A DNA stretch of 64,000 bases from contig CAWHUF010000011.1 in assembly GCA_963832495.1 (NCBI GenBank), positions 963,242 to 1,027,241 of the forward strand, written 5' to 3'. The position numbers and the translations under genes were made by a program. A model generated the notes under the pieces. That model had not been told where the DNA came from and searched no databases. It saw nothing but the letters and a program-made list of their open reading frames with translations. Shown here piece by piece: positions 1,925 through 59,800 of this stretch; position 1 is the first letter of the stretch; each line of letters opens with the position of its first letter. The stretch comes from an uncultured Acidobacteriota bacterium. GTDB taxonomy: Bacteria > Acidobacteriota > Thermoanaerobaculia > Multivoradales > UBA5704.

Positions 1925-2866
1925 TCAGGTCACCTCCAGCCAGGGGGTTGGATGGTCCTGCTCGGTGATGGCCAGCTGTGCGGAGCAGCCCTCCCGGTCG
2001 AGCGCCTCGCCCACGGCGGCGGCGGCCAGGGCGGGCAGATTGTTCGTGCGGGAGAGGTGGTAGAGGGCCACCCAGCGCAGCCGGTCGCCGATCAGCTCGG
2101 GGAGGCCTTCGGCGGCCTCCCGGTTCGACAGGTGGCCGTGGCGGCCGGCCACCCGCTGCTTCAGGCTCCAAGGATACGGGCCGTTCCTCAGCATGTCGAG
2201 ATCGTGGTTGGTCTCCAGGATCAGGACGTCGAGGTCGCGCAGCCGCCCCCAGGCGAGGCTGGTGCGGCAGCCGATGTCGGCCACGAGCCCCACGCGCCGG
2301 CCGCAGGGGTCCTGGATCAGGAAGCCCACCGGCTCGGCCGCGTCGTGAGGGATGAGGAAGGGCTCGACGACGAAACCCGCGATCTCGCAAGGCTCGCCGG
2401 AACGGACCTCGACCGCCTTGGGCACGGCCGCGCCGCGCAGGCCCGCGCCGTCCAGGGTGCCGGCGGTGCCGTAGACCGGCAGCTTGAACCGGCGGGAGAA
2501 GCGCTGCGCCCCCTTGTAGTGGTCCTGGTGCTCGTGGGTGATCACCAGGCCGCCCAGGGTGGCGGGATCGAAATTCAGGCGCGCCATCCGCTTGACCAGC
2601 TCGCGGCAGGAGAACCCGGCATCGATCAGCAGCCGGTGCGGGCCGCTCTCGACGATGACGGAATTGCCGCCGCTGCCCGAGCCCAGGACGCCGATCCGCA
2701 GAGGCGGCCCCGACAGGCGGGGCGCCGGAGCAACACGCAACGGTGGCTCAGAATCGGGGGCCGGAGTCGCCGGCTCGGCGGTCAGGAAGTCGAAGACGCT
2801 CTGCTGGCCGGAGGTGTCCTCCTTCAATCGAGGATAGTGCCGGCGCTTGAAAAGTCGGTTCTGCAA
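1925..2866 (-). CDS. MBL-fold metallo-hydrolase (THEHQDH metal-binding motif); start codon uncertain
   Basis: ORF contains [11 protein letters not shown]...[11 protein letters not shown]... (beta-lactamase-fold HxHxDH). Stop abuts the purS start. Confidence 0.6.
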
Positions 2867-3766: not shown

Positions 3767-6679
3767 TCAGAACCGGGTGCCGATCCAGAACTCCGTGCGG
3801 AAGCCTCCGTCCTCCAGCTCCACGGGGGGCTTGTAGAGCTTTGCGAAGTCCCAGTTGATATCGAGGCCGTAGATGTTGGCGGTGACGCCCCAGCCGTAGG
3901 AGGCGACGCCGTCTTTGAACCGCTTGGCATCCTGGTCGTAGAGGTCGAAATCCTCGAAATCGTCGTACCAGGCCCCGCCGAAGTCGAAGAAGACGACGCC
4001 GCGCACGCCCTGGAAAGCCACCAGCGGGGTGGCCACGAGGTCGATCAGCGGGAAGCGGAACTCGAGGTTGGCGTAGAACGCCCGGTCACCGGAGAGCGAA
4101 CGGAAGTCGACGCCGCGCACGGTGTCCAGGCCGCCGAAGTAGAACGGGTTCGCCGCGTTCCCTTCCGACGCGCCGCCGAAGACGCGGAACGCGAAGTTGC
4201 TCCGCTGGGTCACCTGGAAGTACTGCCGGAAGTCGAGCGAGGCCGACTCGACCACGGAGCCGCCATTGTCGATGTCCGGAGCATAGAAGAGGCTGAAGCG
4301 CCAGCGGCGGCCGGAGATCGCGCCGTAGTTGGCGAACAGCGAAGAGTCCCCGATCAGGGCGGCCCGGAATAGCGGGAAGTCGTCCGAGATCTCGAAGAAA
4401 TCGACGAATCCATCGTCCCTCAGGAACGGCAGGGCGACTACGCGGTAGAGGTAGCCGGCCCCGATCTCGGCCCGCTGGTAGAAGGTGAATGGCAGGACGA
4501 CCGAGCCGATGGCCCCGGTCTGCTGGTCCGCGAGCCGCCCGCGGTCGATCCGGTCCTGGATGGGATCGCCCGTTGAGTAGAACGTCCGGTCGTCGAACAG
4601 GTGGACCTGCCACTGCCAGCGCCGGGAGAAGTCGGCGTAGAGGAAGCTGAAGTTCGAGAAGCTGTCGACGGAGCTGACGTTGGCGAAGATCCGGCGGTCG
4701 CCCAGGTAGTCCGAGAAGGTGAGCAGGACCTGGCCGAGATAGCTCTGGTCGCTGTTGACGCCGATGATGGTGTCGGCGTTCTCCAGGAAGAACCGGCGGC
4801 CTTTGTACTTGTCCTTGTTGGCGTCGTCGATGTTCACCTGGATGTCGGGCTCGAAGGGCTTCAGCTCCTGGGCCGGCACGGCTCCGGCCGGCAGCTCGAC
4901 CGTCTCCGGATCGGCCACGAGCTCGTCGGTGTTGGCCACGTAGAGATCGAAGCTCCCCTTCCAGAAACCGTCGTAGACCACCCGCTCCGGCCCCTCGGTC
5001 GTCTCGCGCAGCACGGTGGGCCAGAAGGCGCCGGTCACCACGTTTGTGTACTGGCGGAGCTGTCCCGTCGCGAAGTCGATGCTGAAGATGTTCTCCGGAC
5101 CCTTGCGGTCGGAGGTGAAGTAGATCCGCGTGCCGTCGGGCGAGTAGACGGGGTCGTTCTCGTTGGACTCGCCGGTGGTCACCGCGTAGCGGCTGCCCGG
5201 AGTCCCAACGTCGAGGCGGAAGATCTTGGCGTGGCCCGTGCCCACGGACGAGATGAAGGCGATCGACCGGCCGTCCGGCGAGTAGGTGGGGGCGCCGTCA
5301 TAGAGCTGGTCGTTGGTCTGGTTGGTGATCGTGCGCGTCTCGATGTCCAGGAGGTAGATGTCGAACTGGCCGCCCCGCCAGGCGGAGAAGGCGATCGACC
5401 GGCCGTCCGGCGAGAAGGCCGGCCCGGACTGCTGCTCGAGATCCTCCATGTCGATGATCTCGCGCAGGCGGCTGTTCAGGACGTCGATCAGCAGCAGGCT
5501 CCGGCCCCTCTCGCGCTTGGCGAAGACGGCGATCGTATTGCCGTCCGGAGAGAAGGAGAGGTCGCGCCCCCACCGGCGGCCGAGCGCGAGCTCCTGGGCC
5601 ACCAGGTACTGGTACTCGTTCGAGAAGCCGCGGGTCAGGTTGCGGATCAGCTGCCGGTTCTTCGTGTCGTAGAGGACGATGTCGACGTCGCCCTTGTAGA
5701 CCGTGAGGGCCGCCACCAGGTCGCCCGACGGCGAGGCCACCGGCGAGGTCGACTGGCTGCCGGCGCGCTCGTTCTCGATGCGGAAGACCCGCCCGAAGTC
5801 CGAAGGCTCGCCGGTCTCGACGAGCTGCGGCAGGTACTTCCTGCGCAGCCACTTCCGGAACTCGAGGTCGAAGTCCTCGGGATCCAGCTTGAACGCCCGC
5901 GTGATCGCCCGGTCCACCCGCGCGCCGATCGTGTTGCGGACCTCGTAGATGAAGTCGAGGAAGCCCTCCTTGCCCCAGCGCTCCTCCATGAAGTCGAACA
6001 CCGCGTGGCCGAAGCGGTAGGCGAAGAAACCGCCGAACTGTGAGCGGGCGACCGACGGGATGCGGTCGTTGACTACCGCGTCGCGCAGGTACATCTTGTC
6101 GCGCTCGGTCTCGTCTTTCGCCATGTAGCTCGCCATGCCCTCCATGAACCAGGTGGGCGGCGAGGTGGAGATGGCCTTGGCGAGGCTGCCCTGGAACAGC
6201 ATCTGGTACTGGAAGATGTGGGTCAGCTCGTGGAGGAGGAGCTGCATCAGCTCCGCGTCCGGCAGGTCGATCGGCAGCACCATCCGGAAGCGCGCCGGGC
6301 TCGCGAAGGCGCCGACCCCTTCGGGGATGAAGTTCAGGATGATGTTGTTCTGCTCGAACGCCGAGTGGGTGGCGTAGAAGAGCAGGGGGACGGGGTCCTT
6401 GATCTGGAAGTTGAACTCCCGCGAGAGCTGGTCATAGCCGCTCTCGGCGAAGGAGACCACCTTCTGGAGCTGCGCCTCCTCGTCCTTGTAGTAATAGACG
6501 TCGAAGTGAGGCGAGTGGTAGATCTGCCACTGGAAGTCCCGGTACTGGATCTTGTTCTTGCCGAACAGGTCGCCGGTGAGGGTGGTCCCGTACTGGGCAC
6601 CCGCGGGAGACAGGGCGAGCAGCAGCGAGCCCAAGGCCAACAGGCCCGCCAGGATCGGGCGATGCGATGAGCGGGTCAA
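3767..6679 (-). CDS. Large secreted/outer-membrane protein: N-terminal zincin-like domain (HELTH), TolB-like beta-propeller repeats (SPDG motifs), C-terminal Omp85/surface-antigen-like beta-barrel ending in Phe
   Basis: Signal peptide MTRSSHRPILAGLLALGSLLLALSPAGA. HELTHIFQ HExxH motif. Repeated SPDG(R/N)(S/T)IAF propeller-like segments. C-terminal ...FRTEFWIGTRF. Intact 970-aa ORF. Confidence 0.55.
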   Translation of the reverse strand: MTRSSHRPILAGLLALGSLLLALSPAGAQYGTTLTGDLFGKNKIQYRDFQWQIYHSPHFDVYYYKDEEAQLQKVVSFAESGYDQLSREFNFQIKDPVPLLFYATHSAFEQNNIILNFIPEGVGAFASPARFRMVLPIDLPDAELMQLLLHELTHIFQYQMLFQGSLAKAISTSPPTWFMEGMASYMAKDETERDKMYLRDAVVNDRIPSVARSQFGGFFAYRFGHAVFDFMEERWGKEGFLDFIYEVRNTIGARVDRAITRAFKLDPEDFDLEFRKWLRRKYLPQLVETGEPSDFGRVFRIENERAGSQSTSPVASPSGDLVAALTVYKGDVDIVLYDTKNRQLIRNLTRGFSNEYQYLVAQELALGRRWGRDLSFSPDGNTIAVFAKRERGRSLLLIDVLNSRLREIIDMEDLEQQSGPAFSPDGRSIAFSAWRGGQFDIYLLDIETRTITNQTNDQLYDGAPTYSPDGRSIAFISSVGTGHAKIFRLDVGTPGSRYAVTTGESNENDPVYSPDGTRIYFTSDRKGPENIFSIDFATGQLRQYTNVVTGAFWPTVLRETTEGPERVVYDGFWKGSFDLYVANTDELVADPETVELPAGAVPAQELKPFEPDIQVNIDDANKDKYKGRRFFLENADTIIGVNSDQSYLGQVLLTFSDYLGDRRIFANVSSVDSFSNFSFLYADFSRRWQWQVHLFDDRTFYSTGDPIQDRIDRGRLADQQTGAIGSVVLPFTFYQRAEIGAGYLYRVVALPFLRDDGFVDFFEISDDFPLFRAALIGDSSLFANYGAISGRRWRFSLFYAPDIDNGGSVVESASLDFRQYFQVTQRSNFAFRVFGGASEGNAANPFYFGGLDTVRGVDFRSLSGDRAFYANLEFRFPLIDLVATPLVAFQGVRGVVFFDFGGAWYDDFEDFDLYDQDAKRFKDGVASYGWGVTANIYGLDINWDFAKLYKPPVELEDGGFRTEFWIGTRF

Positions 6680-16524: not shown

Positions 16525-17928
16525 ATGATCGGCCAGCCGAGATCCTTCAAGCGGGTGCTGGAGCTCTTCCGGAACCCGGCGACGGCCGAGAAGAGCAGGA
16601 TTCTGAAGGACCGCTGGGCGGGGCTCGATCCCGAGCCTCCGTCTCCCCGGGCAGGGGCTGGGCCGGAAGGCGACCGGGTGCGGCGCTACGGTCGGCATCC
16701 AGCCCCGCTGCGACTTCTCCTGCACCGGCTGCTACCTCGGCCGCGAGGCCAACCAGCATCCCCGCCCTGCCCACCGAGGCCATCCTGCGCCAGCTCGACG
16801 AGCTGCGCCGCTGGCTGGGTCCCAAGAGCAACGTCCAGATCACCGACGGCGAGGTGACGCTGCGCCCCGTGGAGGAGCTGACCGAGATCCTCCGCTACGC
16901 CCGGTCGATCGGCGTCATCCCCATGGTGATGACCCACGGCGACAGCTTCCGCCGCCAGCCGGGCCTGCTGGAACGGCTGATGACGGAGGGGGGGCTGACC
17001 GAGGTCTCGATCCACGTCGACATCACCCAGCGGGGGCGGGACGGCTACCGCGTGCCGAAGTCGGAGCTGGAGCTGATGCCGTTGCGCGACGAGTTCGCGG
17101 CCATGGTGCGCGAGGCGCGCCGGCGGACGGGCCGGCCTCTGCGGGCCGCCATGACGCTCACGGTCACCCGGGACAACCTCCCCCAGATCGCCGACGTCGT
17201 GCGCTGGCTGGTCCGGAACCGCGACGCCTTCAGCCTGGTCAGCTTCCAGCCGCTGGCCCAGGTGGGACGGACACGGAAGAGCCAGCAGGGCGTGACGGCG
17301 GCCGAGCTCTGGCGCGAGGTCGGCCGGGGCACGGCGGGTTTCGGGCTCCCCCTCGAGAGCACGGGTCCGCTCCACTTCGGCCACACGGAGTGCACGCGCT
17401 TCGTCCCCCTGCTGGCCCTGGAGCGGCCGGGCGAGGAGCCCCGGCTCTTCCAGGCCTTCCGGGACGAGCCCGAGGACGTGGCCGTCGTCCAGGAGTTCTT
17501 CGAGCACGGCCTGGGCGGAGCGGCCTTCCGGGACGATCGATCTCCTGGAGAAGGTGGCCCGTGCCCTGGGGATGATCCGCACGGCGCCGGGCTGGCTCCT
17601 GGGCCGCGGCCGGCGCTGGGCGGCCGAGCGGTTCCGCGACGAGGCCGGGATCTCGCTCGCGCGCCTCGTCCTCGACAGCCTCCGGGGGCGCCTGCGGGTG
17701 GACGGCCTGACCCTGACGAGCCACCACTTCATGAGCCCGGAGGAGCTGCGGACCCCGCTCGGCCAGGAGCGGCTGGCCGCCTGCGTCTTCCGCCTCCCCT
17801 ACAAGGGCGAGATGGTGCCGATGTGCAAGATGAACGCGGACGGCGTGCGCGAAAGGTTCTACGCGGAGATTATTGAGGGGACGATTGAGGGGGCGATTGA
17901 GGGGGGCGAGGGCGGAGCGGTCCACTGA
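16525..17928 (+). pseudogene. Radical SAM domain protein with at least three frame disruptions
   Basis: CDFSCTGCY (Cx3Cx2C) found in frame b at about 16700. The N-terminus is in frame a, the body in frame c (IPALPTEAILRQLDELRRWLG...VMTHGDSF...), and the C-terminus in a fourth-segment frame (IDLLEKVARALG...HHFMSPEELRTPLG...MCKMNADGVRERFYAEI). Shifts near 16610-16630, 16745-16755 and 17525-17535. Confidence 0.6.
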
Positions 17929-18292: not shown

Positions 18293-18632
18293 TGGTCCGC
18301 GCGGGCATCAGCCCCTGATCCGCGAGAAGCTACGGCCCGTCCACGGGACTGCGCCGCCCGTGCGCGGGCTCCAGCCGCTGGCGCTCGCCCTCCAGCGGCA
18401 GAAACTCGGGGGCCTGCACGGGCCGCTCAGGGGCGCGCGCCAGAAACTCGACCCCGCGCACGGGCCGCGCGAGCTCGCGCGGCAGAAACTCGGGGGCGAG
18501 CGCGGGCGGCTGGAGCCCGCGCACGAGCGGCACGAGGGCGTGCGGCGGAAACTCGGGGGCAAGTTTTTGCCGCACACCCCCGCGCGGTCCGTGCCGGCCG
18601 GCGGCGTTGTCGGTGTCGATGAGGAGCATGGT
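18270..18632. repeat. Repeat-rich low-complexity block bounded by two copies of TCGGTGTC(C)GATGAGGAGCATGG and containing 3-4 copies of GCGGCAGAAACTCGGGGGC
   Basis: Direct copies at 18270-18293 and 18610-18632. Internal motif copies at about 18394, 18438 (variant), 18479 and 18542. Protein translations are low-complexity (APEFLP / QKLGG repeats). Confidence 0.6.
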
Positions 18633-19983: not shown

Positions 19984-20889
19984 TCCACCGCTTCCTGGAG
20001 CACATCCAAGGGGAGCGGCAGCTCTCGCCACAGACGCTCCGTGCCTACGAGCACGACCTCGTCACCTTCCACGAGCTTCCTGGCCGAATACCTGGGTAAG
20101 GCTCCGGAGGACGTGCGGCCCCAGGATGTGGACGCCCTCGCCGTGCGCTCCTTCCTGGCGGCGCTGACCCGGCGGGGCCTGGGCAAACGGAGCCAGGGGC
20201 GGGCGCTCTCGGCCGTGCGGAGCCTCTTCCGCTTCGCCTGCCTGGAGGGCGTGATGCCGGCCAACCCGGCCCAGGGGGTGAAGACGCCCAAGGTGCCCAA
20301 GACCCTCCCCCGCCACCTGCGGCCCGGCGAGGTGGAGAACCTGATCGAGGCGCCCGCGGGGGACGAGCCGCTGCAGCGGCGGGACCGGGCCATCCTGGAG
20401 CTCCTCTACGCCTCGGGCCTGCGCGTCTCAGAGCTGGTGGGGCTGGACTGGAAGGACATCGACCTCTCCGCGCGGGTGCTGAGGGTGATGGGCAAGGGGA
20501 GCAAGGAGAGGATGGTGCCCTTCGGACGGCCGGCGGCGGACGCCCTGCGCCGGTGGCTGGAGGTCTGGGAGGGCGTGCGCGATCTCATGCAGGATGGGGA
20601 TCCGGTCTTCCTGAACCACGTGGGCGGCCGGCTCACGGACCGCTCCGTGCGGCGGGTGATCGACCGCTGGGTGGACGCGGCGGCCGTGGCCCGGGGGGTC
20701 CACCCCCACACGCTGCGCCACACGTTCGCCACCCACCTGCTGGAGAACGGGGCGGACCTGCGGGCCATCCAGGAGCTGCTGGGGCACAGCTCGCTGTCGA
20801 CCACCCAGAAGTACACGCACCTGGAGGTGGACCGGCTGCTCTCCGTCTACCGCGACGCCCACCCGCGGGCCCGGCGGGAACCAGAATGA
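19971..20889 (+). CDS. xerC: Tyrosine recombinase XerC/XerD family (one apparent frame disruption near 20070-20080)
   Basis: ATG at 19971 overlaps the trmFO end. MRRLIHRFLEHIQGERQLSPQTLRAYEHDLVTFHE then a shift to (F)LAEYLGKAPEDV... RDRAILELLYASGLRVSELVGL ... HTLRHTFATHLLENGADLRAIQELLGHSSLSTTQKYTHL (catalytic RHRY region). Confidence 0.8.
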
Positions 20890-21449
20890 CGGCGACTATG
20901 ACGGGGACTATGACGGGGACAATCGAGCGCCAGTTCCCCTGCACGCCAGGAGGATCGATCCTCCGGGGCCGCAAAAGGCTGCGGAATCTCCTGCTGGGGC
21001 TGACGCTGCTGATGCTGGTGGTGGGCGGGCTGACTCTAACGGCCGGCCGGATCAGCCCCGGCCTCATCGCGCTCGCCGTAGCCATGATCCCGTGGACGGC
21101 CTGGCGGATGAGCGGCGACCTCGACCCGTTCTGGCTGGAGGTGGCGGGCGGCAAGCTGACGGTGCAGATGCGGCGGCGCCGCGAGAGCTTCGCCGCCGCC
21201 GGAGCGGAGGGGAGACGCCTGGTGGCAGACGAAATCGCCCATCTGGAGACCCTGACGACCACGGGCGGAGTCTCCGCCGGCACCGGCGGCTTCGAATCCC
21301 ATCGTCTGGGAGAGTTCGATCTCTATGCGAGCGACCTCGGCCATGCCGTGCTGGTGGACCTGGGGGAGACGCGGCTGATCGTCACTCCGGACGACCCGGG
21401 GGCTTTCCTGGAAGCCCTTTCCGTCCCCCTGATATACAATCGCCAGCCC
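20886..21449 (+). CDS. Hypothetical small membrane protein (open in-frame into hslV in this sequence)
   Basis: ATG overlaps the xerC stop (ATGA). Hydrophobic LLLGLTLLMLVVGGLTLTAGRISPGLIALAVAMIPW. No stop before the hslV start codon. Confidence 0.35.
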
Positions 21450-29469: not shown

Positions 29470-30144
29470 TCGAAGCCGCCGGGCTGCTCCACGTGAGCCA
29501 GGCGGCCGTGCTCCAGCCGGACCTCGCGGCTGGCGCGGGCCGCGATCGCCGGGGCGTGCGTGACCAGGACCAGCGTGTGCCCGCGCTGGTGGAGGTCGGC
29601 GAGGAGCGACATCACGACCGCCTCGTTGACGGCGTCGAGGTTGCCCGTGGGCTCGTCGGCCAGGATCAGCGGCGGCTGGTTGATGAGCGCGCGGGCGATG
29701 CACACCCGCTGCTGCTCGCCGCCCGAGAGCTGGCTCGGCAGGTGGGACAGGCGCTCGCCCAGGCCCACCCGGCTGCAGGGCCTCCTCGGCCTCGCCCCGG
29801 TCGGTCATGCTGTGGACGTACTGGGCCAGCATGACGTTCTCGAGCGCCGTGAGATAGGGGATCAGGTGGAACTGCTGGAAGACGAGGCCCACCGTGCGCT
29901 GCCGGTAGCGCGCCAGCTCGCGGGCGGAAAGCCCGGAGAGATCGACGCCGCCGACCTCGACCCGGCCCGAGGTCGGCCGGTCGAGGCCCGAGAGGATGTT
30001 GAGCAGCGTGGTCTTGCCCGAGCCCGAGGGGCCGGTCACCGCCACCCACTCGCCCTCGCTGATCGAGAGGTCGAGATCGTCCAGGGCGCGGAGCGCTCCG
30101 AAACGGCGGCTCAGGGCCTCGGCTTCGACGAACGGCTCGGCCAT
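29470..30144 (-). CDS. ABC transporter ATP-binding protein (MacB/LolD-type ATPase; internal frame disruption near 29760)
   Basis: [16 protein letters not shown]...[17 protein letters not shown] (Walker A) ... [15 protein letters not shown] (signature) ... [11 protein letters not shown] (Walker B). Confidence 0.7.
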
Positions 30145-37388: not shown

Positions 37389-39725
37389 CTAGAGCTCCCG
37401 CAGGGCCGTGGCCACCGGCAGGCGCGCCGCGCGGATGGCGGGGAAAAGGCCGCCGATCAACCCCATCAGCAGCGAGCAGACGATGCCCAGCACGATGAGC
37501 GGCGGCGTGACGGCGAACGCGAACGACAGCTGGCTGAACGTGCTCCAGTTCAGGGTCGAGGTCTGGAACCCGTCGAAGGCCAGCCAGGCCACGCCCGCCC
37601 CGATCAGGCCGCCCACGAGCGCCAGCAGCAGCGCCTCCGACAGCACGGAGATCACCACGGGCCCGGCGCGGAACCCGAGGGCCCGCAGCGTCGCGATCTC
37701 CCGCGTCCGCGAGGCCACCGCCGCGTACATGGTGTTGAGCGCCGCGAACACGGCTCCCGCCCCCATGGTGACGGTGATGAAGATCCCGATGATCTTGATC
37801 ATCAGGGTCAGCGCCTGCGATTGGGAAGCGTAGTACTCCTCCTCGCGGATCACCTTGGTGTCGAGCTGGGGATTGCTGGTCAGGGCGTCCTTGAAGGCCG
37901 TGAACGCCGCCGGGGAATCGAGCTTGACGTAGACCGACTGGAACGAGCTGCCTCGCCGGTAGGCGGGCTGGAGCACCCCGACGTCGCACCAGATCTCCGA
38001 CTCGGGAACGCCGCCATCGGCCTCGAAGATCCCCACCACGCTCCACTCGTTCTCGCCCCAGCGCAGGCGGTTGCCCAGGTCCAGGCCCGCGAACTGCGAC
38101 GCCGCGGCCCGGCCCACCACGATCTCGTTGCGGCCGGGCTCGAACTTCCTCCCCTCGACGATCCGCACCTTGTCGCGCACCTCGAAGGCGGCCGGCTGCA
38201 CGCCCCGCAGGGGCACGTTGGCGTCGGTTCCCGTGGAACGCTTCGGCAGGTCGACGATCACGTAGAGCTCGGCCGAGGCGGCCCGCGCTCCCGGCGCCTC
38301 CGCGATGAGGCGCGTGGCCTCACGCTCCAGGCCGCTCATCATCTCGCTGTCGCTGCCGGACCGCAGCACCACGGCCGTGTCCGACGAGGCGCTCGCGGTC
38401 AGGGCGTCACGCACGCCTTCCCCGATGGAGAACACGGCGATGGAGACGATCACCACCCCGGCCACGCCGATGATGATCGCCAGCGAGGAGCCGGCGCGCT
38501 GCGGGATCGTCCGCAGGTTGACCGCCGTCACCGCCAGCGACTTGAGAGAGCCAGTTCATGGTTCATACCCTCCGCAGCGCATCGACGATGCGCAGCCGCA
38601 TGGCCTGGGCCGCCGGCAGCAGCCCGGCGAGGATCCCGAAGAACAGCACCAGCGCTGCTCCGGTCAGGAGAGCGTTGGCCGGCAGGAAGAAGACCGGCAG
38701 GAAGGACTTCAGCGCCTGGCCCAGCCCGGGAATGATCACTGCCACGGCCAGGAGCAGGCCCAGCCCGCCGCCGAGCACGGCGATGGCCACCGACTCGGCG
38801 AGCACCAGCGCCAGCACCCGCCCGCGCGAAAAGCCCAGCGTCTTCAGCACGGCCAGCTCATTGGTGCGCTCCCGCACCGCCTGCGCCATGGTGTTGCCCG
38901 TCACCACCAGCATGATGAGGAAGACCGCCGTCAGCACCCAGCGGACGATCGCCGCGATGTTGCCCACCTGGTTGGCGAAGCACTGGGCGAAGGCCTTCTC
39001 GGTGTTGGTCTTGGTCTCGGCCGGCGAGTTGGCGAACAGGCCGTCGATGCGGCTCGAGAGGCTCGGCGGCCTGCGCCGGATCGGCGATCCTCACCGTGTA
39101 CCAGCCCACGAAGCCGAGCCGCCCGCCCATGCCCTCGTTCAGGTAGTCGTAGCGGAAGTACATGCCGCTGGTGTCGGTCCCCTTCTCCTTCCCCTCGTAG
39201 ATGCCGGAGACGTTGAATTCCCACAGGCTCGACGCCACCCGGCTTGCGGTAGATCGTGGCCTGGATGGGGATGCGGTCGCCGACCTTGAAGCCGAACCGG
39301 TCGGCAAGCTGCCGGCCGACGATCGCTCCCGTGCGGTCGGAGAGCCAGGCCTTCTTCTGCTCCGGGGTCAGGACGTACTCGGGGTAGAGGTCCAGGAAGG
39401 TCTCGTGGTCGACCGCCATCTGGCCGAAGAAGTTCTTGGGGTCCTGATAGATGCCGCCGAACCAGTTGGCGAAGGTGACGGCCTCGACGCCCGGCACCGC
39501 CTTGATCCGCGGCCCGTAGGTGGCCGGCAGCGGCTGGATGAGCGCGACCTTGTGGATCGTCAGCAGGCGGTCCGCCCCCGCCAGCTCCACGCCGCCGGTG
39601 AAGGCGTTGTCGATGGCCAGCAGGGCCCCGAACAGCACGAAGCTGACGAAGACCGACAGCACCGTGAAGATCGTCCGGGCCTTCTTCCGCTTCAGGTTGC
39701 TCCAGACCAGGGGTAGGAATTTCAT
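37389..39725 (-). CDS. MacB-like ABC efflux permease (two MacB_PCD + FtsX modules); 2-3 frame disruptions
   Basis: Pieces in three frames: 38931-39725 ([25 protein letters not shown]...), 38563-38967 (FtsX TM segment ...LGFSRGRVLALVLAES...), 37389-38531 (second periplasmic domain + FtsX ...LRALGFRAGPVVISVL...). Confidence 0.65.
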
Positions 39726-40417
39726 GCCGCCGCCTCCAGCACGAGGCTGCCCTTCTCCAGGTGCACGGTGCGCCGGGCCCGCGCCGCGGCGTGGGGGTCG
39801 TGAGTGACCATGATGATGGTCTTGCCGTGCTCGCGGTTGAGCGCCTGCAGCAGGTCCAGGATCTCGTCGCCCGACTTGCGGTCCAGATCGCCCGTGGGCT
39901 CGTCGCAGAGCAGCAGCGTCGGGTCGGTGACGATGGCTCGGGCGATGCCCACCCGCTGCTCCTGGCCGCCCGAGAGCTGCCGCGGGTAGTGCCTGGCGCG
40001 GTCGGCGAGGCCGACCATGGCGAGCGCCGCCGCCACGTGCTTCTTGCGCTGCGCCGCCGACAGGTGGGTCAGCAGCAGCGGCAGCTCCACGTTGCGCTCG
40101 GCCGTGAGCACCGGCAGCAGGTTGTAGAACTGGAAGACGAAGCCGACGTGGCGCGCCCGCCAGTTGGCGAGCTGCCCTTCGGAGAGCCGGTGAATGGACT
40201 CGCCCGCCACCTCCACGGAGCCGGACGTCGGCCGGTCGAGCCCGCCGATCAGGTTGAGCAGCGTCGTCTTGCCGGACCCCGAGGGTCCCATCAGCGCCAG
40301 GAAATCTCCCGGGGGGATCTCGAGGTCGATTCCCTGCAGGATCTCGATCTTCTCATCGCCGCGCCGGTAGGTCTTGTGGACGTCCTGGACGCGGACCAGC
40401 GTACCGTTCTGCTCCAT
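39722..40417 (-). CDS. ABC transporter ATP-binding protein (MacB/LolD-type)
   Basis: Start [13 protein letters not shown] after a [54 protein letters not shown]. Confidence 0.85.
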
Positions 40418-40449
40418 TCGATCCTCCTCGTTTCTCATTACTGAGCGGA

Positions 40450-41703
40450 TTACTGAGCGGAGACCTGGACGGAGACCAGGGCCCCGTCCTTCAAGTCCGC
40501 GGGACCTTCCGTGACCACCCTCTCGCCCGCGGCGAGGCCGGAGGTCACCACCGCTTCCTCGCCCTGGCTCGCCGCGAGCCCCACCGCCCGCCGCTCCACG
40601 CGGTCACCCTGGACCACGAAGACGACGTTCTTGTCGCCCTCCTGGCGCACGGCGGCGCGGGGGACCACCACCGCGGCTTTTCCCCCGCTGTTACCCACCG
40701 GCTCTCCCGGCTTTTCGTCCCCCAGGAAAGCCACCTTGACGCCCATGTCCGGCAGGATCCGCGGGTCGAGCTGGTCGAAAGACAACCGCACCCTCACCGT
40801 GGCCTTCTGCCGGTCGGCCGTGGGCACGGGCATGATGACCCGGGACGGGATCTGCCAGTCGGGGTAGGCGTCGAGCGTGGCGAACGCCTTCTGGCCGGGC
40901 TTCACCCGCTGGATGTAGCTCTCGTTGACGTCCACCTCGACCTCGAGCGAGCTCATGTCCACCAGCGTGCAGATGCCCGTGCGGGTGAAGCCGCCGCCGG
41001 CCGACACGGGCGAGATCATCTCGCCGGGCTGGGCGTCCTTGCTCACGGCCACGCCGGAGAAGGGGGCGCGGATCACCGTGTCGTCCACGTCCTGGCGCCG
41101 CAGGGCCACCTCGCGCTCGGCCACGGTCACCTCCTGGCGGCCGACTTCGAGCCGCGCCGCGAGCGAGTCCACCTCGGCGTCGGCCGTGTCCCCCTGGGCC
41201 TGGGTCGAGACCCCCTGTTCCAGCAGGCGCCGCATGCGCTGCTGGTTGAGCTTGGCCTCGCGCAGCCGCACCTCGGTCTCGGCGAGACTCCGGCGCTGCG
41301 AGCCGAGACGGGCCTCGGCCAGGGCGAGCTGCTTTCTCGGCGTGGCGTCGTCGAGACGGGCGAGCACCTGCCCCTCGCGCACCTCCATCCCCTCCTCCAC
41401 CAGCACGTCCACCACCTTGCCCGTGACCTTGGAGGAGACAGTCGCCTGGCGGCGGGCCGTCACGTAGCCCGAGGCGTTGAGCACCGCGCCCGCCGCGGCC
41501 GAGCCGCCGGCGCGGGTCTCCGCGGGTTCCGCAGCGATGGCCTTCACCTGCACCGGCCGCGGCCGGGTGAACCACCACCATCCCGCCGCGGCCACCAGGG
41601 CCACGGCCAGCAAAACAATCCACAGACGCCCGCGGCCGCCGCTCTCTTCCACCCCCGAGCGGTCGATGCGCAGGGCGTCCAGCGAAGGTCTTTCCGAAGC
41701 CAT
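40450..41703 (-). CDS. Efflux transporter periplasmic adaptor (membrane fusion protein, MacA/HlyD family)
   Basis: N-terminal TM (LWIVLLAVALVAAAGWWWF). Coiled-coil region (LAEARLGSQRRSLAETEVRLREAKLNQQRMRRLLEQG). Beta-barrel/MPD C-terminal region. Confidence 0.8.
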   Translation of the reverse strand: MASERPSLDALRIDRSGVEESGGRGRLWIVLLAVALVAAAGWWWFTRPRPVQVKAIAAEPAETRAGGSAAAGAVLNASGYVTARRQATVSSKVTGKVVDVLVEEGMEVREGQVLARLDDATPRKQLALAEARLGSQRRSLAETEVRLREAKLNQQRMRRLLEQGVSTQAQGDTADAEVDSLAARLEVGRQEVTVAEREVALRRQDVDDTVIRAPFSGVAVSKDAQPGEMISPVSAGGGFTRTGICTLVDMSSLEVEVDVNESYIQRVKPGQKAFATLDAYPDWQIPSRVIMPVPTADRQKATVRVRLSFDQLDPRILPDMGVKVAFLGDEKPGEPVGNSGGKAAVVVPRAAVRQEGDKNVVFVVQGDRVERRAVGLAASQGEEAVVTSGLAAGERVVTEGPADLKDGALVSVQVSAQ

Positions 41704-41795
41704 CCCTTCTCCTCCCCTGTTCCAAGTGTGCTGATACGGATGGGGACTGACTGAAGTTGCCGGAGGGATTCTACCCGAAGGCGCAATCGAAGCGG

Positions 41796-41940
41796 AAGAT
41801 CAGGCCTCGCAAAAAGATCAGGCCTCGCAAAAAGATCAGGCCTCGCAAAAAGATCAGGCCTCGCAAAAAGATCAGGCCTCTCAAAAGGTCAGGCCTCGCA
41901 AAAAGATCAGGCCTCTCAAAAGGTCAGGCCTCGTAGATGG
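41796..41940. repeat. Tandem repeat: about 8 copies of an 18-bp unit AAGATCAGGCCTCGCAAA
   Basis: Copies at about 41796, 41814, 41832, 41850, 41868 (variant), 41886, 41904 and 41922. The last copy contains the queD stop codon. Confidence 0.8.
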
Positions 41941-42316
41941 CGCAGGAGGTCTCGGTCTCCCACACCTCGACCCGGGTCACCCGCACCCGGTCCTGCTCCG
42001 CCCCCTCCAGTAATCGCCGCTCGACCTCCTCGAAGACGTACTGGCTGAACAGCTCCGCCGTGGTGTTCCGTTGGTCGAACGGCGGGATCTCGTTGATCAC
42101 CTGATGGTCGAAGGGTCCCAGGATCTCCTGCATCATGGCCTTCAGGTCGGCGAAGTCGAGGACCATCCCCAGCCCGTCCAGCCGCTCGGCCTCGAGGTGC
42201 ACCCTCACCCGGTAGTTGTGGCCGTGCAGGTTCTGGCACCCGCGGGTGTGGCCCCGGATGGCATGGGCGGCGGCGAAGTGGAAGTCCTTGAAGATCGTGT
42301 GCATGGCCGCCCTCAT
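41924..42316 (-). CDS. queD: 6-carboxy-5,6,7,8-tetrahydropterin synthase QueD (PTPS family)
   Basis: MRAAMHTIFKDFHFAAAHAI...CQNLHGHNYRVRVHLEAERLDGLGMVLDFADLK...EVWETETSCAIYEA. Confidence 0.75.
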   Translation of the reverse strand: MRAAMHTIFKDFHFAAAHAIRGHTRGCQNLHGHNYRVRVHLEAERLDGLGMVLDFADLKAMMQEILGPFDHQVINEIPPFDQRNTTAELFSQYVFEEVERRLLEGAEQDRVRVTRVEVWETETSCAIYEA

Positions 42317-42691
42317 CGTGTCGCCCGGAGCCCGGAGAGTCAAGAGGTCCACAACAGAGGACGCAGCCGGCTCCGGAAGAGGACGATTAGAAACCTTTTT
42401 CGGATTCAAAGTTTCGGATCACGACGGTTTTCCGTTTTCCCTTCCCGGTCCGGACGAAACGCCCCTGTTCAGGGACGAAACGCCGGATTTCCGGGACGGC
42501 GGTGGCACGGTCCTCTCCGCCCCGGATACCTGTCGCGTTTTTTACGATCCATCCCGTTGAATCCGGCTTTCCGATCAGAATTCAATTTCTCCCGTGGAAT
42601 CAATGATTTAGCGGGGCGGCACAGCCGTTGCTCTAGCGTCCGGCGTTGGTGATTCAAACATAGGGGGGCAACAACAGGAGGTTTTGTTCTC

Positions 42692-45672
42692 ATGAATTTT
42701 CTTCTATTCTCAAAGCGCGCCATTTCCCTCGCCGTTCTGCTGCTCGTCCTCGCCATGCCGGCGATGGCGCAGCTCCAGAGCGGCAACCTGCACGGCATCG
42801 CCGCGGGGGTGGAAGGCACGCCGATGCCCGGGGTCACCGTGACCCTGACGGGCGTCGGCGCTCCGCAGACCACGACCACGGACGAGCAGGGACGGTTCCG
42901 GTTCCTCGGTCTGTCGCCCGGCCTCTACACCGTCGAGAGCGCGCTCCAGGGCTTCGCGTCCGACCGGCGCGACAACGTCGAGATCAACGTCGGCCGCAAC
43001 ACCGAGGTCACGCTGACCGTGCGGGTCACGGACGTGATCGAGGTCCGCGGTGAACGGGCCGATGCTCCGTTGCTCGACACACGCCGCGTCGCCCAGAGCC
43101 AGACGGTCACGCTCACGGAGCTGGAGAGCATCCCCACGGCCCGCGATCCCTGGGCCGTCCTCAGCTCCATGCCGGGCGTGCTGACCGACCGCATCAACGT
43201 CGGCGGCAACGAGAGCGGCCAGCAGTCGCACGTTCGTCGGTCCCGGCTCCGGCGGCGACCAGGCCGTCTGGTCGCTCGACGGCATGGTGATCACCGACAT
43301 GTCGGCCATCGGCTCCTCGCCCGGCTACTACGACTTCGAGTCGTTCGAGGAGATGCAGGTGACGACCGGCGGCAGCGACGCCTCGATCGCCACCGGCGGC
43401 GTGGTGCTCAACATGGTCACCCGGCGCGGCGACAACGCAGTGGCGCGGCTCCGGCCGCTACGTGGTCTCGGACGACAGCATGCAGTCCGACCTCGAGTTC
43501 GACCGCGAGCGACCTCGGCCAGGCCGGCCCCTGGAACAACGGCAACGCCCAGACCGCCTTCAAGCAGGGCAACCGGATCGTCGAGAACGTCGGACTGACG
43601 GCGCCGAGCTCGGCGGCCCCGTCGTCAAGGACCGCCTGTGGGTCTGGGGCTCGTACGCCAAGCCGGAGATCCACCTGCTGACGATCGACGACTTCAGCGA
43701 CAAGACCACCCTCGAGGAGCTGGAACGCTCAAGCTGAACGCCCAGATCACGCCGAGCAACTCGGCGACCGCCTTCGCCTGGCAGAGCGACAAGGTCAAGA
43801 TCGGCCGCAACGCCAGCCCCACTGCGGCCCCAGGAGACCACCTGGAACCAGTCGAAATTCGGGCCCGATCCCGACGGCCTGGAAGGTGGAGGACACCCAG
43901 ATCTTCGGCACCAGCTTCTTCATCACCGGCATGTACTCGGTGGTCAACGGCGGCTTCCAGCTCGTGCCCCAGGGCGGCGACGGTGATCGCCTTACCGCGA
44001 TCGCCGGGCTGAAGTGGCACAACAGCTTCCTGCTCAACCAGATCGAGCGCCCCAGGAGCAGATCAAGGCCGACGCCTCCAACTTCTTCAACACCGGCGAC
44101 CTCTCCCACGAGCTCAAGTACGGCGCCGGCTACCGCACGGCCGAGCAGTCGTCGCTCTTCACGCTGGCCGGGCGGCGGCGTCGAGATCGTCCTGGGCAAC
44201 GGCAACTACCTGCTGGGCCTCGCCCGCGACGGCGGTGCCCGAGGTCGAAGACCGAGTACACCAACGCTCTACGTGCAGGACACGCTGGTCAAGGGCAACC
44301 TCACCGCCAACGTCGGCCTGCGCTACGACCGCCAGGGCGGCGAGAACCTGGCCTCCACCGTGCCGGCCAACCCGGTCTTCCCCGAGCTGCTGCCCGCCGG
44401 CCACTACGAGGGCGGCGACAGCCGGCTTCGAGTGGACGACGATCACTCCCCGCCTCGGCCTGACCTACGCCCTGGGCGCCCAGCGCAAGACCCTGCTGCG
44501 CGCCAGCTACTCGCGCTTCGCCGACCAGCTCGGCACCGGCGTCGCCGGCTTCCTCAACCCGCTCGGCGGGCTGCAGGCTACCGGCTACTTCTACACCACC
44601 AACAACGGCGGCCCCACCCTGGAGCCGGGCGAGCTCGGCCCCGAGTCCTCGGGCTCAGCGGCAACATCAATCCGATCACCTTCGAGCCGCTGCAGTCGAA
44701 CGCCGTGGATCCGAACCTCGACGCGCCGATCACCGACGAGCTCCTGCTCGGCATCGAGCACGCCCTGCGGCCGGAGCTTCGCTGGTGGGCCTGAACCTCA
44801 ACTACCGGCAGCTCCACCGGCATCCTCGAAGCCGAGCGCCTGGTCTTCGACGCGACGATCCGTTCTCCGACGAGAACCTCGGCACCGTCGGCCGCGTCCA
44901 CCGGCGGGACGACTACGTGCCGAGCGCACCTCAGATCCTTTCGTGGCCCCCGACGGCCGCACCTACACCGTGCACTACTGGGACCTGCGCGACGGCGTCA
45001 CCACCCGCAACGGCTTCCGGCTCGAGAACGGCGACCGCGAGCAGGAGTTCCTGGGCGCTTCGCTGACCTTCAACAAGCGGCTCGCCAACCGCTGGATGAT
45101 GCGCGGCAACGTCTCCTGGCAGGACTGGACGTGGAACATCCCCGACAGCGAGAACGAGGATCCGACCGACACCATCGGCCGGCGGCATGGTGGACGGCAC
45201 CGACGTGCTCCAGGGCTCGGGCACTCGTCTCCGGCGCCAAGGGCAACGTGTTCATCAACAGCACGTGGTCCTACAGCCTGAACGGCCTCTACCAGATCGC
45301 GCCCGACCGCCCCTGGGGCTTCAACGTCGCCGCGAACCTGAACGGCCGCCAGGGCTACCCGCTCCGCTACGTCGCGGCGCGTCAACCGTGCGGCGATCAG
45401 TGACAACGCCGGCAGTCGGCATCGACATCCCGATCGACTCCTCTCCGGACGCCTTCCGCTACCCCGACGTCCACGTGGTCGACCTGCGGGCCGAGAAGGA
45501 GTTCACCTTCAGCGACTTCGGCTTGACGTTGGGGATCGACCTGTTCAACGCCTTCAACGAGTCCTACGTGCTCCAGCGCCAGGGCGTCCTCGGGTTCAAC
45601 TCCTCCAACAGGGTGGTGGAGGTCCTGAGCCCGCGCGTCCTCCAGCTTGGAGCCCGTGTGAGCTTCCGTTAG
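42692..45672 (+). pseudogene. Oar-like TonB-dependent-receptor-like outer-membrane protein (CarboxypepD_reg N-terminal domain + plug-like + beta-barrel) with about 20 frame disruptions
   Basis: Signal MNFLLFSKRAISLAVLLLVLAMPAMAQ. GVTVTLTGVGAPQTTTTDEQGRFRFLGLSPGLYTV. ELESIPTARDPWAVLSSMPGV. Remaining pieces in alternating frames, homologous throughout to the minus-strand paralog 56853-59241. Ends ...LQLGARVSFR. Confidence 0.6.
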
Positions 45673-45744
45673 TCAGTGCCTCTCCGATGCCTGCCGCCGG
45701 GGGCGACCCCGGCGGCCCTTTTTTCTCGACTGGGAGGTCCTGAG

Positions 45745-46221
45745 ATGATGAACCTGAGAAGCGTGACTCTCGAAGACGATTTCCGCGACGCTGTACGAGA
45801 ACGCCGCCTGGCCGAGCTCCTGGCCGCCGCGGCCACGCTGCAACGCCAGCTCGCCGTCCTGCTCGGCCCGCCGCAACCCGAAGTCCCCACCTTCCGGCGG
45901 CTCGCCGTGCGCAACAACGGCAACGTGCTCTTCCTGGCGCCGGAAGAGATCGAATGGATCGAAGCGGCCGGCAACTACGTCCGCCTGAACGCCCTGGGCC
46001 AGTCGCACCTGCTGCGCGAGACGATGTCCGGAGTGGAGGCCAAGCTCCCTCGCGACCGCTTCCTGCGCATCCACCGCTCGGCCATCGTCAACCTCGAAAC
46101 CGTGCGCGAGCTGGAGCCCAGCCCCCACGGCGATTTCGTGGTGGTCTTGAAGAGCGGCAAAAGGCTGCCGCTGTCGCGGGGGTGCAGGGACCGGCTGGAA
46201 GAGGCGCTGGGGACGGGGTAA
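45745..46221 (+). CDS. Stand-alone LytTR-family DNA-binding protein
   Basis: RBS GGGAGG 7 nt before the ATG. IEWIEAAGNYVRLNALGQSHLLRETMSGVEAKLPRDRFLRIHRSAIVNLETVRELE (LytTR domain). Confidence 0.7.
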   Translation: MMNLRSVTLEDDFRDAVRERRLAELLAAAATLQRQLAVLLGPPQPEVPTFRRLAVRNNGNVLFLAPEEIEWIEAAGNYVRLNALGQSHLLRETMSGVEAKLPRDRFLRIHRSAIVNLETVRELEPSPHGDFVVVLKSGKRLPLSRGCRDRLEEALGTG

Positions 46222-56852: not shown

Positions 56853-59800
56853 TCATCGCCAGGAAACTCTCAGGCCGAGCCGGCAGGTGCGCGGCGCGAC
56901 CTCATCATTCGCGAGGCCGGCCCGGCTCGTGCCGAGATCGGCCTCGCGCCAGAGGGTGGCGTCCTCGTTCAGCAGATTGAAGACGTCCAGGCCGAACGTC
57001 AGGTTGAAGTCACTGAGGGTGATCTCCTTCTCCAGCCGTGCGTCCACGGTGATGACGTCGTCCCCCCGCGAAGAGCCGATCTCCACGACGGGGACCCGTG
57101 CGAGCCCGGCCCGCTCGCGGACGACCTGCCGGTACCAGGCCGCCGGGTATCCCTCGCGGCCATTGACCGCGAGCCCGGCGTTGAACCCGGTGCTGAGGTG
57201 GGGGAAGAACTGGTAGAGGCCGTCCCAGTGGAACGACCAGCCGCCCAGGATGAAGCGGTCGGCCGCGTAGGGGCGGTCGAGCGCCGAGGCGGGCACGGCC
57301 ACGGGGTCGCCGTCACGGTCGCCGCCGCCCAGGGCGCGGGTGGGATCGTCGTAGCGCTCGAAGCCGGGGCCGACACGCCACGTCCAGTCGCTCCAGGTGA
57401 CGTGGCCGCGGGACATCCAGCGGTTCGAGAGCCGCTTGTTCAAGAGCAGGGAGAAGCCGAGGTAGTCCTGTTCCCGGTCGCCGTTCGTGAGGAGGGTGCC
57501 CCCGGTCCACGTGAGGCCCGGGCGCAGGTCAAAAACCGTTTCCGTCAAGGAGATCCAGTCGGCGGCCGTGGCGGCGAAAACCTTTCCATTTTCATCGCGC
57601 ACCAGGAGCCGCTCTTCGAGCACGTCCTGCGTCCGCCTCCAGGTACCCTGGAAACCGATCATGAGCTCATAGGAGAAGCTGTGCTCGACGCTGACCGCAA
57701 GCTCGTCCGTGATCTCCGGAGCCAGGTCCGAAGCGACGGCGTTGGGGTTGACGCCCAGGAGAGGATCGCGGTTGGCGCTGTACCAGGGCTGGTCTCCCTC
57801 GACCGTTGAGAAGAAGTACGACGTTGCGGAGACATTGGGATCGAGCCGGAACGCCGGCGCCGTGCCGAGCCGCGAAGCGAACCGGGAGAGCGACGTCCTC
57901 AGCAAGGTGCTCCTCTCGGGTCCGAGCGCCCAGTTCAGCCCGAGCCGGGGTGACAGGGTCTGGGGCCTGATGTCTCCAGAAGGTTGGCCGGGGATCCCCA
58001 GGTCCTGCTCGTCGAAGCGGAGCCCCAGGGTGAACGTCGCATTGCCCAGGGTGGCGATGTCCTGCACCCAGGCGCTCGCCGTTTCCGTCTCCGTCCTCAC
58101 TTCCCCGCTGCTCCAGACCTCCACCACCCTGGCGTTGCCGGGCTCCAGGGTCTCCTCCGCGATCTCGATCCGGCCCGGAGCCGTGAGGAGGGTCCGGCTG
58201 TCCTGTCCGCGCCACGAAAGCCCCGCCTTCAGCTCATGGGAAAGCTCGCCGGTGTTGAAGAAGTGGCTCCCCGTGAGCCTCGGCGATCTCCGTCCGGTGG
58301 TCCTCGGCAAAACCGAACCACGTCCCCTGGGCAACGCCCGCGGGATCGATCCGCGCCTCTCCCGCCAATCCCCCCAGCGGGACGTCGCTCTGGGTTTGAT
58401 CGATGCTCCCCCACTGGCCGCTCACATAAAAGTTGGCGGTGAAGATGTGCGTGTCCTCGATCTTCCAGATTTCATCCCGGACATCCCGGTCCCAGGTGGT
58501 CTCCGGTGCGCGGGCCGGAGAGGCCCCCAGTCCCAGGATCGAGGCGTCTCCCCGCTTCCAGAACAGGGTGGCCGAGTTGTGCTCGCCGGGTTGGCTGTTC
58601 AGCTTGAACGATCCATTTTCGAGGAGGGTTTCCTGCCGCTGGCCACCCAGGACGTTGCTGTCGGTCTCGTCGCGCTGGAGCGATCCCCACGCCCAGAGCC
58701 GGTCCCGGCGGAGCGGCCCTCCCAATTCGGCGCTGCCGCTGTCGAGCTTTTCGATCCCGTTGTCCCTGGCTTCCTGAAGAGCGTCTCCGCCCCAGAGGAA
58801 CTGGCCCGAGCCGCGCCACTCGTTGGTGCCTCGCTTGGTGACCATATTGACGTGCACGCCAGGGGTCTCCAGAACCGCGTCCGCGCCGCCGGTCGTGACG
58901 GTGACCTCCTCGTAGCTGTCGTAGTCGTAATACGCGGGAGAAGATCCCAGAGCGCTCATGTCCGTGACCGCGAAACCGTCGACCACCCAGGTGTTCTGAT
59001 CGCCCGCAGCTCCCTGCCCCACGGCAACCGTGGGCTGGCCGCTCTCATCGCCGCCCACGCTGACGCGGTCCGTGAGGACGCCCGGCGTCGACTGCAGCAC
59101 GGTCCAGGGATCGCGAGACGTGGGGATCTTCTTCGAGCTCGGTCTGCGAGACGGTACAGCTCTGGGTGATCCGGCGCTCGTCGAGCAGAGGGCTTTCGGC
59201 GGTGACGGTGATGCAGTCCTGCACTCCGTCGTCGTAGGCAAAGCCCCCGGAGCCCCGCGGCGGATTCACCGGCACGGTACGGATCGCCGGCAAGACGCCG
59301 TTCGGAGCCGAAGCCACCACGTCCACGGCGACCAGGCTGGTATAGCCCGTGACCAGGTGGTGGCGCAGGCCGAGCTCGACGATCGTGCGGCGGAGCTCAT
59401 CGGCCTCCGTGGCATTGATACCGTTTCCCAAATAGGCGCTGTCCAGAAGGGAATCGATCTTCTTCTTCGCCCACAGCTTGTGGATGCCCGCGGTGCCTGC
59501 GGTGCCTGCGCCATGGATCTCGGCCGCTTCGGGGAACGAGTCCTGCCAGAATTCGCCGCCGCGCCGGCCCGAGACCTCGACTGGCCCGGAAGAGGACCCG
59601 CGCCTTGCCACGACAGTCAGCGGCTCGCCCAGATAAAGGTCGGGAATCCGTGCGGGCCACATCTCGGCCGCCGGATCAGCCCAGCGGATTTCGAGGTCCC
59701 GGAGCATGGGCGCTTCGAGTTGGGCGAACAGGGCGCCCATGCGCTCGGCCACTTCCGAGACGCTGGAAACGTGAGTGAATGTGCCACGGCCGAGATCCGC

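Follow-up and report, generated by a model that had tools for sequence, protein, structure and literature searches.

A lineage-specific and probably near-neutral minisatellite between queD and a MacAB-like efflux operon in a member of the Thermoanaerobaculia

Between queD and a MacAB-like efflux operon lie eight head-to-tail units of 17–18 bp, and this array, which is real, is probably a young, lineage-specific and near-neutral minisatellite (VNTR) produced by slippage at a permissive site. It was found in a 64-kb stretch of DNA from an uncultured acidobacterium, the whole of which is called the window here. Judged by comparison with related loci, the unit is composed of the final nine bases of queD and the nine ancestral bases downstream of them, at which the predicted promoter block of the efflux operon begins. 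The orthologous junction of queD stop and promoter carries one, two or eight copies of this unit, eight being present in the window only. The coordinates of the features are collected in Table 1.

Table 1. Features of the queD–efflux operon locus and related repeats (positions refer to the window unless a related locus is named)
Feature	Position	Strand	Description
Array	41791–41932	minus	8 head-to-tail units of 17–18 bp; TRF, pattern search, direct-repeat family D1, unit parse on gene strand
U1	41916–41932	minus	17 nt, GAGGCCTGACCTTTTGA
U2	41898–41915	minus	18 nt, GAGGCCTGATCTTTTTGC
U3	41881–41897	minus	17 nt, identical to U1 (GAGGCCTGACCTTTTGA)
U4–U7	41809–41880	minus	4 x 18 nt, each identical to U2 (GAGGCCTGATCTTTTTGC)
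U8, ancestral type	41791–41808	minus	18 nt, GAGGCCTGATCTTCCGCT; identical to the single-copy sequence of relative L085
queD	41924–42304	minus	6-carboxytetrahydropterin synthase, 126 aa; Pfam PF01242, E=1.5e-40
HlyD/MacA-like membrane-fusion protein gene	40450–41703	minus	first gene of efflux operon; Pfam HlyD_D23, HlyD_3, Biotin_lipoyl_2
RBS of macA-like gene	41704–41717	minus	GGGGAGGAGAAGGG
Operon remainder	37389–40438	minus	Pfam ABC_tran, MacB_PCD, FtsX
ABC ATPase	39722–40438	minus	
FtsX/MacB-type permease 1	38563–39725	minus	split across frames
FtsX/MacB-type permease 2	37389–38531	minus	
Conserved block	41768–41798	minus	CTTCCGC-TTCG-ATTGCGC-CTTCGGG-TAGAAT; two 7-bp direct repeats 11 bp apart
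-10-like TAGAAT	41768–41773	minus	7 bp after second direct repeat
ECF-sigma-type promoter candidate	41733–41761	minus	GGCAAC (-35)-17 nt-CGTATC (-10); 29 nt before start codon
MacA-stop/ATPase-start junction duplications	window 40437–40472; L085 about 4405–4430; L004 about 4680–4710; L091 about 2550–2580		
21- or 42-bp-period arrays	window 42452–42498; L040 4–242; L041 2281–2437; L053 279–668; L036 3729–4040; L026 169–229		

Tandem Repeats Finder (TRF) returned as the top-scoring repeat of the window a stretch at 41796–41933 with a period of 18, 7.8 copies, 91% matches and a score of 234, an alternative description of the array having a period of 35–36 and 97% matches. The parse into units on the minus strand, on which both flanking genes are encoded, agrees with the roughly eight tandem 18-bp units proposed in the initial annotation. 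That annotation had located them at 41796–41940; the array itself is confirmed but both ends shift, 41940 being 8 bp too far into queD and the promoter-side end lying at 41791. In its structure, with eight units of 91–97% matches, the array conforms to a minisatellite (units of ~10–100 bp with high identity). A search of the 64-kb window with the unit GATCAGGCCTCGCAAAAA, allowing at most three mismatches, gave seven matches against 0.03 expected from dinucleotide-preserving shuffles, and all seven fell inside the array. Five of the units (U2 and U4–U7) are identical 18-mers and two (U1 and U3) are identical 17-mers, so that U1 and U2 form a 35-bp higher-order unit which is repeated as U3 and U4.

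Outside queD the array covers 133 of the 220 bp separating this gene from the macA-like start, in keeping with the earlier description of an array filling most of the gap. Its GC content is 52%, against 68% for the window, and its units contain T5 tracts. There are five of them, out of a total of 21 A5 tracts on the plus strand of the 64-kb window, and the nearest one lies ~50 bp upstream of the putative transcription start. Six GATC sites occur in the array because the unit contains TGA followed by TC, and clustering of Dam-type sites was rejected on this ground. In the window as a whole GATC is ~3-fold over-represented, with 576 sites observed and ~192 expected from base composition.

The QueD protein of the window is 80–92% identical to QueD proteins of Thermoanaerobaculia, the best matches being at 88–92%, and these homologues place the window in this class of the Acidobacteriota. 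The macA-like product is 86–91% identical to the product of the gene following queD in two related loci, L004 and L085. The 3' end of queD reads TAC GAG GCC TGA, and the stop codon (41924–41926) lies inside the repeat, as first described, within U1. The first nine nucleotides of U1 (41924–41932) are the last two codons of queD and its TGA stop; since U1 always provides GAG GCC TGA, the QueD protein is the same at any copy number.

The 3' flanks of queD were gathered from 88 related loci, in 56 of which the same MacA-like gene comes next. A MAFFT alignment of 13 junctions (the window and 12 relatives) presents the array as an insertion specific to the window, with one extra unit common to L084 and L001 only. 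In the closest group, the junction of L085 reads ...TAC GAGGCCTGATCTTCCGCT CGGATTGCGCCATCGGATAGAAT, in which the 18-mer of U8 is present exactly once. A single copy is also present in L004, L007, L009, L016, L022, L031, L038, L086–L089 and L091, this state being found in at least 13 loci of related Thermoanaerobaculia. Two copies are present in L084 (GAGGCCTGATCTTCCAC GAGACCTGATCTTCCGCT) and in L001/L002 (GAGGCCTGATTTTCCTGC GAGACCTGGTCTTCCGCT). Since relatives hold the same 18-mer once or twice, the unit can be identified as the end of queD plus 9 bp of the promoter block. The array was thus seeded from the gene end, as the initial annotation had proposed, and has recently grown, only the window having eight units; the five identical units likewise indicate recent growth. 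In L001 the first unit (...TTTTCCTGC) has already drifted, and the interior units of the window (...TCTTTTTGC) are similar to it; U8 is of the ancestral type. Copy number at this orthologous locus therefore differs among related genomes in the manner of a VNTR (1, 2 and 8), the variation being between related species-level lineages and not between strains.

The locus lies on the chromosome, and its synteny extends over many genomes. Screening of metagenomes with the promoter block gave three loci, all with a single copy, and a scan with a 29-nt leader pattern gave no match. Exact protein matches to two queD start variants, the macA-like product and the ATPase were not found in the assembly collection, and viral contigs contained no exact match to 27 nt of the array, a length of one and a half units. 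With regard to iterons and replication origins, no rep-like gene was found among the neighbours in the annotated part of the window, and the relatives lack the array.

On its promoter side the array adjoins, and through U8 overlaps, a conserved block of the pattern CTTCCGC-N4-NTTSCGC-N7-TAGAAT. Block length and pattern are kept in L004, L007, L009, L016, L022, L031, L038, L084, L085, L086–L089 and L091. TAGAAT is found here in 43 of the 56 queD-macA loci, with TATAAT, TACAAT or TAGTAT in six more; many of the more distant loci carry the hexamer as CGATCGGATAGAATCC, which is conserved there in place of the direct-repeat block. We infer that TAGAAT is a -10 element and that the block from CTTCCGC to TAGAAT is a promoter, in which the paired 7-bp repeats would resemble a response-regulator site in place of a -35. 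The 3' half of U8, CTTCCGC, is the distal element of the block and stands at the -35 position (TTCCGC, 18-nt spacer). The array thus ends directly at the -35-position element, 18 bp before TAGAAT, and its assignment to the promoter region of the efflux operon holds. Between the queD stop and TAGAAT there are 0–49 nt in the relatives and 150 nt in the window.

A second candidate lies closer to the macA-like gene. Promoters of ECF sigma factors have AAC at -35, CGTA, CGTC or CGAC at -10 and a spacer of 14–17 bp, often with the sequence tGAAACnTTT (PMC5758882), and GGCAAC-N17-CGTATC of the window has the AAC, the CGT and a spacer in this range. At the same position (G/C)(A/C)AAC-N16/17-CGTA occurs in 31 of the 56 loci, the spacer sequence being free to vary, and GGAAAC-N14-CG(A/G)C in 10 more, giving 41 of 56; among the loci with an ECF-type motif here are L007, L009, L016, L020, L021, L024, L028 and L040. 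At first sight this conserved sequence resembled a leader RNA motif, and it is not in Rfam. Its interpretation as a riboswitch or palindromic operator was rejected in favour of an ECF-type promoter, AAC and CGT standing at a fixed 16–17 nt with a variable spacer. No gene for an ECF sigma factor was found among the annotated neighbours. The efflux operon therefore appears to have two conserved predicted promoters, both downstream of the array, with start sites expected ~7 nt after TAGAAT (near 41760) and ~6–8 nt after CGTATC (near 41727). This arrangement, including an ECF-type promoter before a MacAB-like operon across the Thermoanaerobaculia, is useful for genome annotation.

Since U8 is ancestral and the conserved elements are all downstream of the array, gain or loss of units cannot alter the -35/-10 spacing of either promoter. 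The initial proposal that copy number can change promoter spacing is thus not supported. Phase-variable promoter repeats are situated between -35 and -10 or in a regulator site, whereas here the -35-position element, TAGAAT and the ECF-type promoter follow the array with the same spacing as in the relatives. Nor does each unit contain a promoter sequence, as in the repeats of M. tuberculosis: the unit is 18 bp long, TAGAAT is present once at the locus, and of the -35-position element the interior units have no more than a degenerate version (CTTTTTGC). A consensus scan found no sigma-70-like promoter inside the array. The array does alter the DNA upstream of about -40: in place of the GC-rich coding sequence of queD, this DNA consists of 52%-GC repeats with T5 tracts. 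UP-like elements act ~50 bp upstream of the transcription start. A modest UP-like effect of the AT-rich tracts at about -50 on the predicted promoter is therefore plausible.

The following history would account for these observations. In the ancestor the 18 bases GAG GCC TGA TCTTCCGCT would have joined the queD stop, with no gap, to the promoter block of the efflux operon. A single duplication of this 18-mer would have been the first step, and the two-copy state would survive in two relatives. In the lineage of the window the copy on the gene side, by then drifted to ...TCTTTTTGC, may have been amplified to eight units, including one duplication of the 35-bp double unit. We infer replication slippage or unequal exchange as the mechanism. 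Growth would be tolerated on both sides, because the first unit always supplies the queD codons and stop, leaving QueD unchanged, and the last unit is always ancestral, so that the promoter elements keep their sequence and spacing. The net result would be 124 bp of T-tract-rich 52%-GC DNA between queD and the promoter, close to neutral in effect. The background of slippage in this DNA is consistent with such an origin. In the window TRF found 10 arrays scoring at least 50, shuffled sequence giving 0.6 on average (an enrichment of about 15-fold), and 20 scoring at least 40, against 3.3; the largest score in a shuffle was 71, compared with 234 for the array. At the junction of the MacA stop and the ATPase start, tandem duplications of 12–15 bp have arisen independently in four lineages (Table 1). 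In the window this junction has a 12-mer three times (GTCTCCGTCCAG GTCTCCGCTCAG TAATCCGCTCAG TAATG), with the MacA stop codon in one of the copies. A high slippage background with tolerance at gene boundaries fits these data, and the array can be explained without a function because slippage is frequent and the survivors sit where no frame or core promoter is broken.

Five T5 tracts in a 68%-GC genome, the nearest ~50 bp upstream of the putative start, speak against the presumed neutrality. The array could tune expression of the efflux operon from upstream of the promoter in a contingency-like manner, through the number of T tracts at -50 and beyond or through the distance from queD DNA and traffic, slippage then yielding subpopulations that differ in expression of the operon. 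The abutment of the array on the -35-position element, the low GC content and T5 tracts of its units, and the readiness with which five identical 18-mers should slip are all in accord with this. So is a further repeat at the same slot: in L025 (3387–3422) a different 9-bp unit, CGACCGGAT, is present four times with 96% matches between the queD stop and TAGAAT, and by its sequence is an independent expansion. Sequence has thus been added at the queD-promoter slot in three lineages (the window, L001/L084 and L025), which could be a mark of selection. In M. tuberculosis the copy number of promoter repeats varies within the population, including upstream of the cysG-efpA efflux locus (PMC12817950). 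Tuning of this kind is nevertheless unlikely in our judgement: the core elements and their spacing are independent of copy number, most relatives function without any array, and the unit is too short for a whole promoter, unlike the 54–58-bp units of M. tuberculosis. The T5 tracts, moreover, do not sum to a planar bend because the 18-bp period is out of helix phase (18/10.5 = 1.7 turns). The fuller proposition that the array is a working contingency element of a free-living soil acidobacterium, generating efflux-pump subpopulations by slippage upstream of two promoters (an activator-type sigma-70 promoter and an ECF promoter), is considered improbable. If it were true, the recurrence of additions at the slot in other lineages would point to selection for tuning, and the pump would be an envelope-stress pump expressed at different levels among subpopulations. 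An action at the RNA level is very improbable. It would make the array a queD 3' UTR or read-through attenuator, in which adjacent units pair through their AGGCCU palindromes, with transcription from queD terminated or paused at the U-runs behind them. Each unit does have AGGCCU followed by GAUCUUUUU, 6-bp stems with 12-nt loops can be drawn, and the minimum-free-energy fold uses some of these stems. Against it, a terminator scan of the array revealed no terminator-like hairpin, and RNA folds of its two strands were no better than those of shuffles (z = +1.2 and +0.3); for the strand with z = +1.2, equal or better folds were given by 179 of the 200 shuffled sequences. The window contained no Rfam match at the gathering score, and the relaxed filters gave only matches at chance level (E=1.3 and E=3.9). 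In the relatives, moreover, TAGAAT follows the queD stop too closely for a terminator to fit in between, and the ancestor therefore probably had read-through from queD. The initial suggestion that copy number can affect read-through is accordingly graded as weak.

Near-neutral growth by slippage also has to be set against two readings which concern what the array encodes and whether it was assembled correctly. A coding role is next to negligible. It would fall either to a 59-aa plus-strand ORF at 41757–41936 with KIRPRK repeats or to a read-through extension of QueD; both frames are open, that of queD running through the array after the first TGA, and most units have a length divisible by 3. 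Open frames follow automatically, however, from a unit with a stop in one frame only together with two 17-nt units. The plus-strand ORF starts at TTG and has no Pfam match, and one or two units, as in the relatives, are too few to encode either product. Neither is conserved; both are absent from all relatives and are effectively refuted. As to assembly, a sequence with many single-base indels elsewhere underlies both the copy number and the exact unit lengths of 17 and 18 nt, and the repeat may have been mis-sized, collapsed, expanded or given indel errors. Compared with L001 the window has 37 single-base gaps, mostly insertions in the window, of which ~29 lie in the outer-membrane-protein (OMP) gene at 43229–45416. 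Together with the split genes for the FtsX permease, an ATPase and a second OMP, these are typical of imperfect polishing, and the contigs of L001 and L003 end 166–333 bp beyond queD. That the copy number and the 17/18-nt detail are products of assembly is still quite improbable. The internal variants are ordered, unlike noise, with the 35-bp double unit present twice, four identical units and an ancestral-type end. The 17-mers have one and the same sequence, which departs from the 18-mer at three positions and not in a homopolymer alone; long reads would easily span a 142-bp array. This ordered structure, and the two-copy states found at the same site in independent assemblies of relatives, argue that the array is real.

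Among known systems the array comes closest in form to the bacterial VNTRs or minisatellites used in MLVA typing. These too consist of head-to-tail units of 10–100 bp in an intergenic spacer with a presumed slippage origin, their copy number differs between related genomes, and their recent units are identical and the older ones diverged. The array differs in the precise derivation of its unit from a gene's stop codon and the first element of the neighbouring promoter, and in that its variation is known only between species-level lineages, not strains. In M. tuberculosis, promoter tandem repeats with copy-number variation are described at dop, lpdA-glpD2 and cysG-efpA (PMC12817950). Like the array, they lie just upstream of a promoter in a GC-rich bacterium and vary in copy number between lineages, and the cysG-efpA repeat also precedes an efflux-pump locus. 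Their units repeat the promoter itself and so change its dose, whereas the unit of the array lacks a -10 and leaves TAGAAT and the ECF-type promoter unrepeated; in addition, their variation has been shown within a population and that of the array between lineages only.

The simple-sequence repeats of phase-variable promoters in Haemophilus and Neisseria have units of 1–7 nt and change core spacing or a defined regulator site. The array has in common with them a slippage-prone repeat at a promoter and a potential for reversible length change, and differs in its 18-nt units and in lying wholly upstream of the conserved elements. MIRUs are 40–100 bp long, are dispersed at many loci and contain small ORFs that couple translation. 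Like the array, they stand in tandem between genes that share an orientation in an operon-like cluster, and the repeat includes the stop codon of the upstream gene. The 18-bp unit of the array, in contrast, is confined to one locus in the 64-kb window, all seven matches with at most three mismatches lying in the one array. Taken alone the array is of little weight, but it is a clean case in which single-, two- and eight-copy states of a minisatellite have all survived in related genomes. It also shows why arrays at gene boundaries persist: the stop codon of the upstream gene is preserved by the first unit and the downstream promoter by the last. Were copy number to tune the efflux operon, the range of promoter-repeat phase variation would grow beyond pathogens to include an uncultured lineage of the soil.

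In the OMP gene at 43229–45416 (CarboxypepD_reg/TonB-type), which is itself broken across frames, most of the ~29 insertions of single bases relative to L001 are outside homopolymers. Further genes split across frames are found at 38563–39725 (FtsX permease 1), 29499–30093 and 56856–59133, and include a second ABC ATPase and a second OMP. The split genes suggest either an imperfectly polished long-read assembly, with errors left in paralogous genes, or pseudogenes.

LytTR sites have a typical period of 21 bp. Binding of a LytTR regulator to the array, with its period of 18, was rejected, and relatives with the regulator gene have no array. Arrays with a period of 21 or 42 bp occur near queD in several relatives (Table 1), just upstream of queD in the case of L040; some of their units have short inverted repeats, and their sequences are mutually unrelated. 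The divergent spacer between queD and the OMP gene of the window itself contains GGACGAAACGCCCCAGTTCAG in 2.2 copies (42452–42498), and a LytTR regulator gene (45676–46221) is situated two genes away. Other high-scoring TRF arrays in ~500 kb of the relatives' loci have different consensus units. Elsewhere in the window, repeats well over the shuffle level are ATTGAGGGGGCG in 2.8 copies at 17872–17905, ATGACGGGGACT in 2.9 copies at 20886–20920 and a 42-bp unit in 3.0 copies at 18395–18522.
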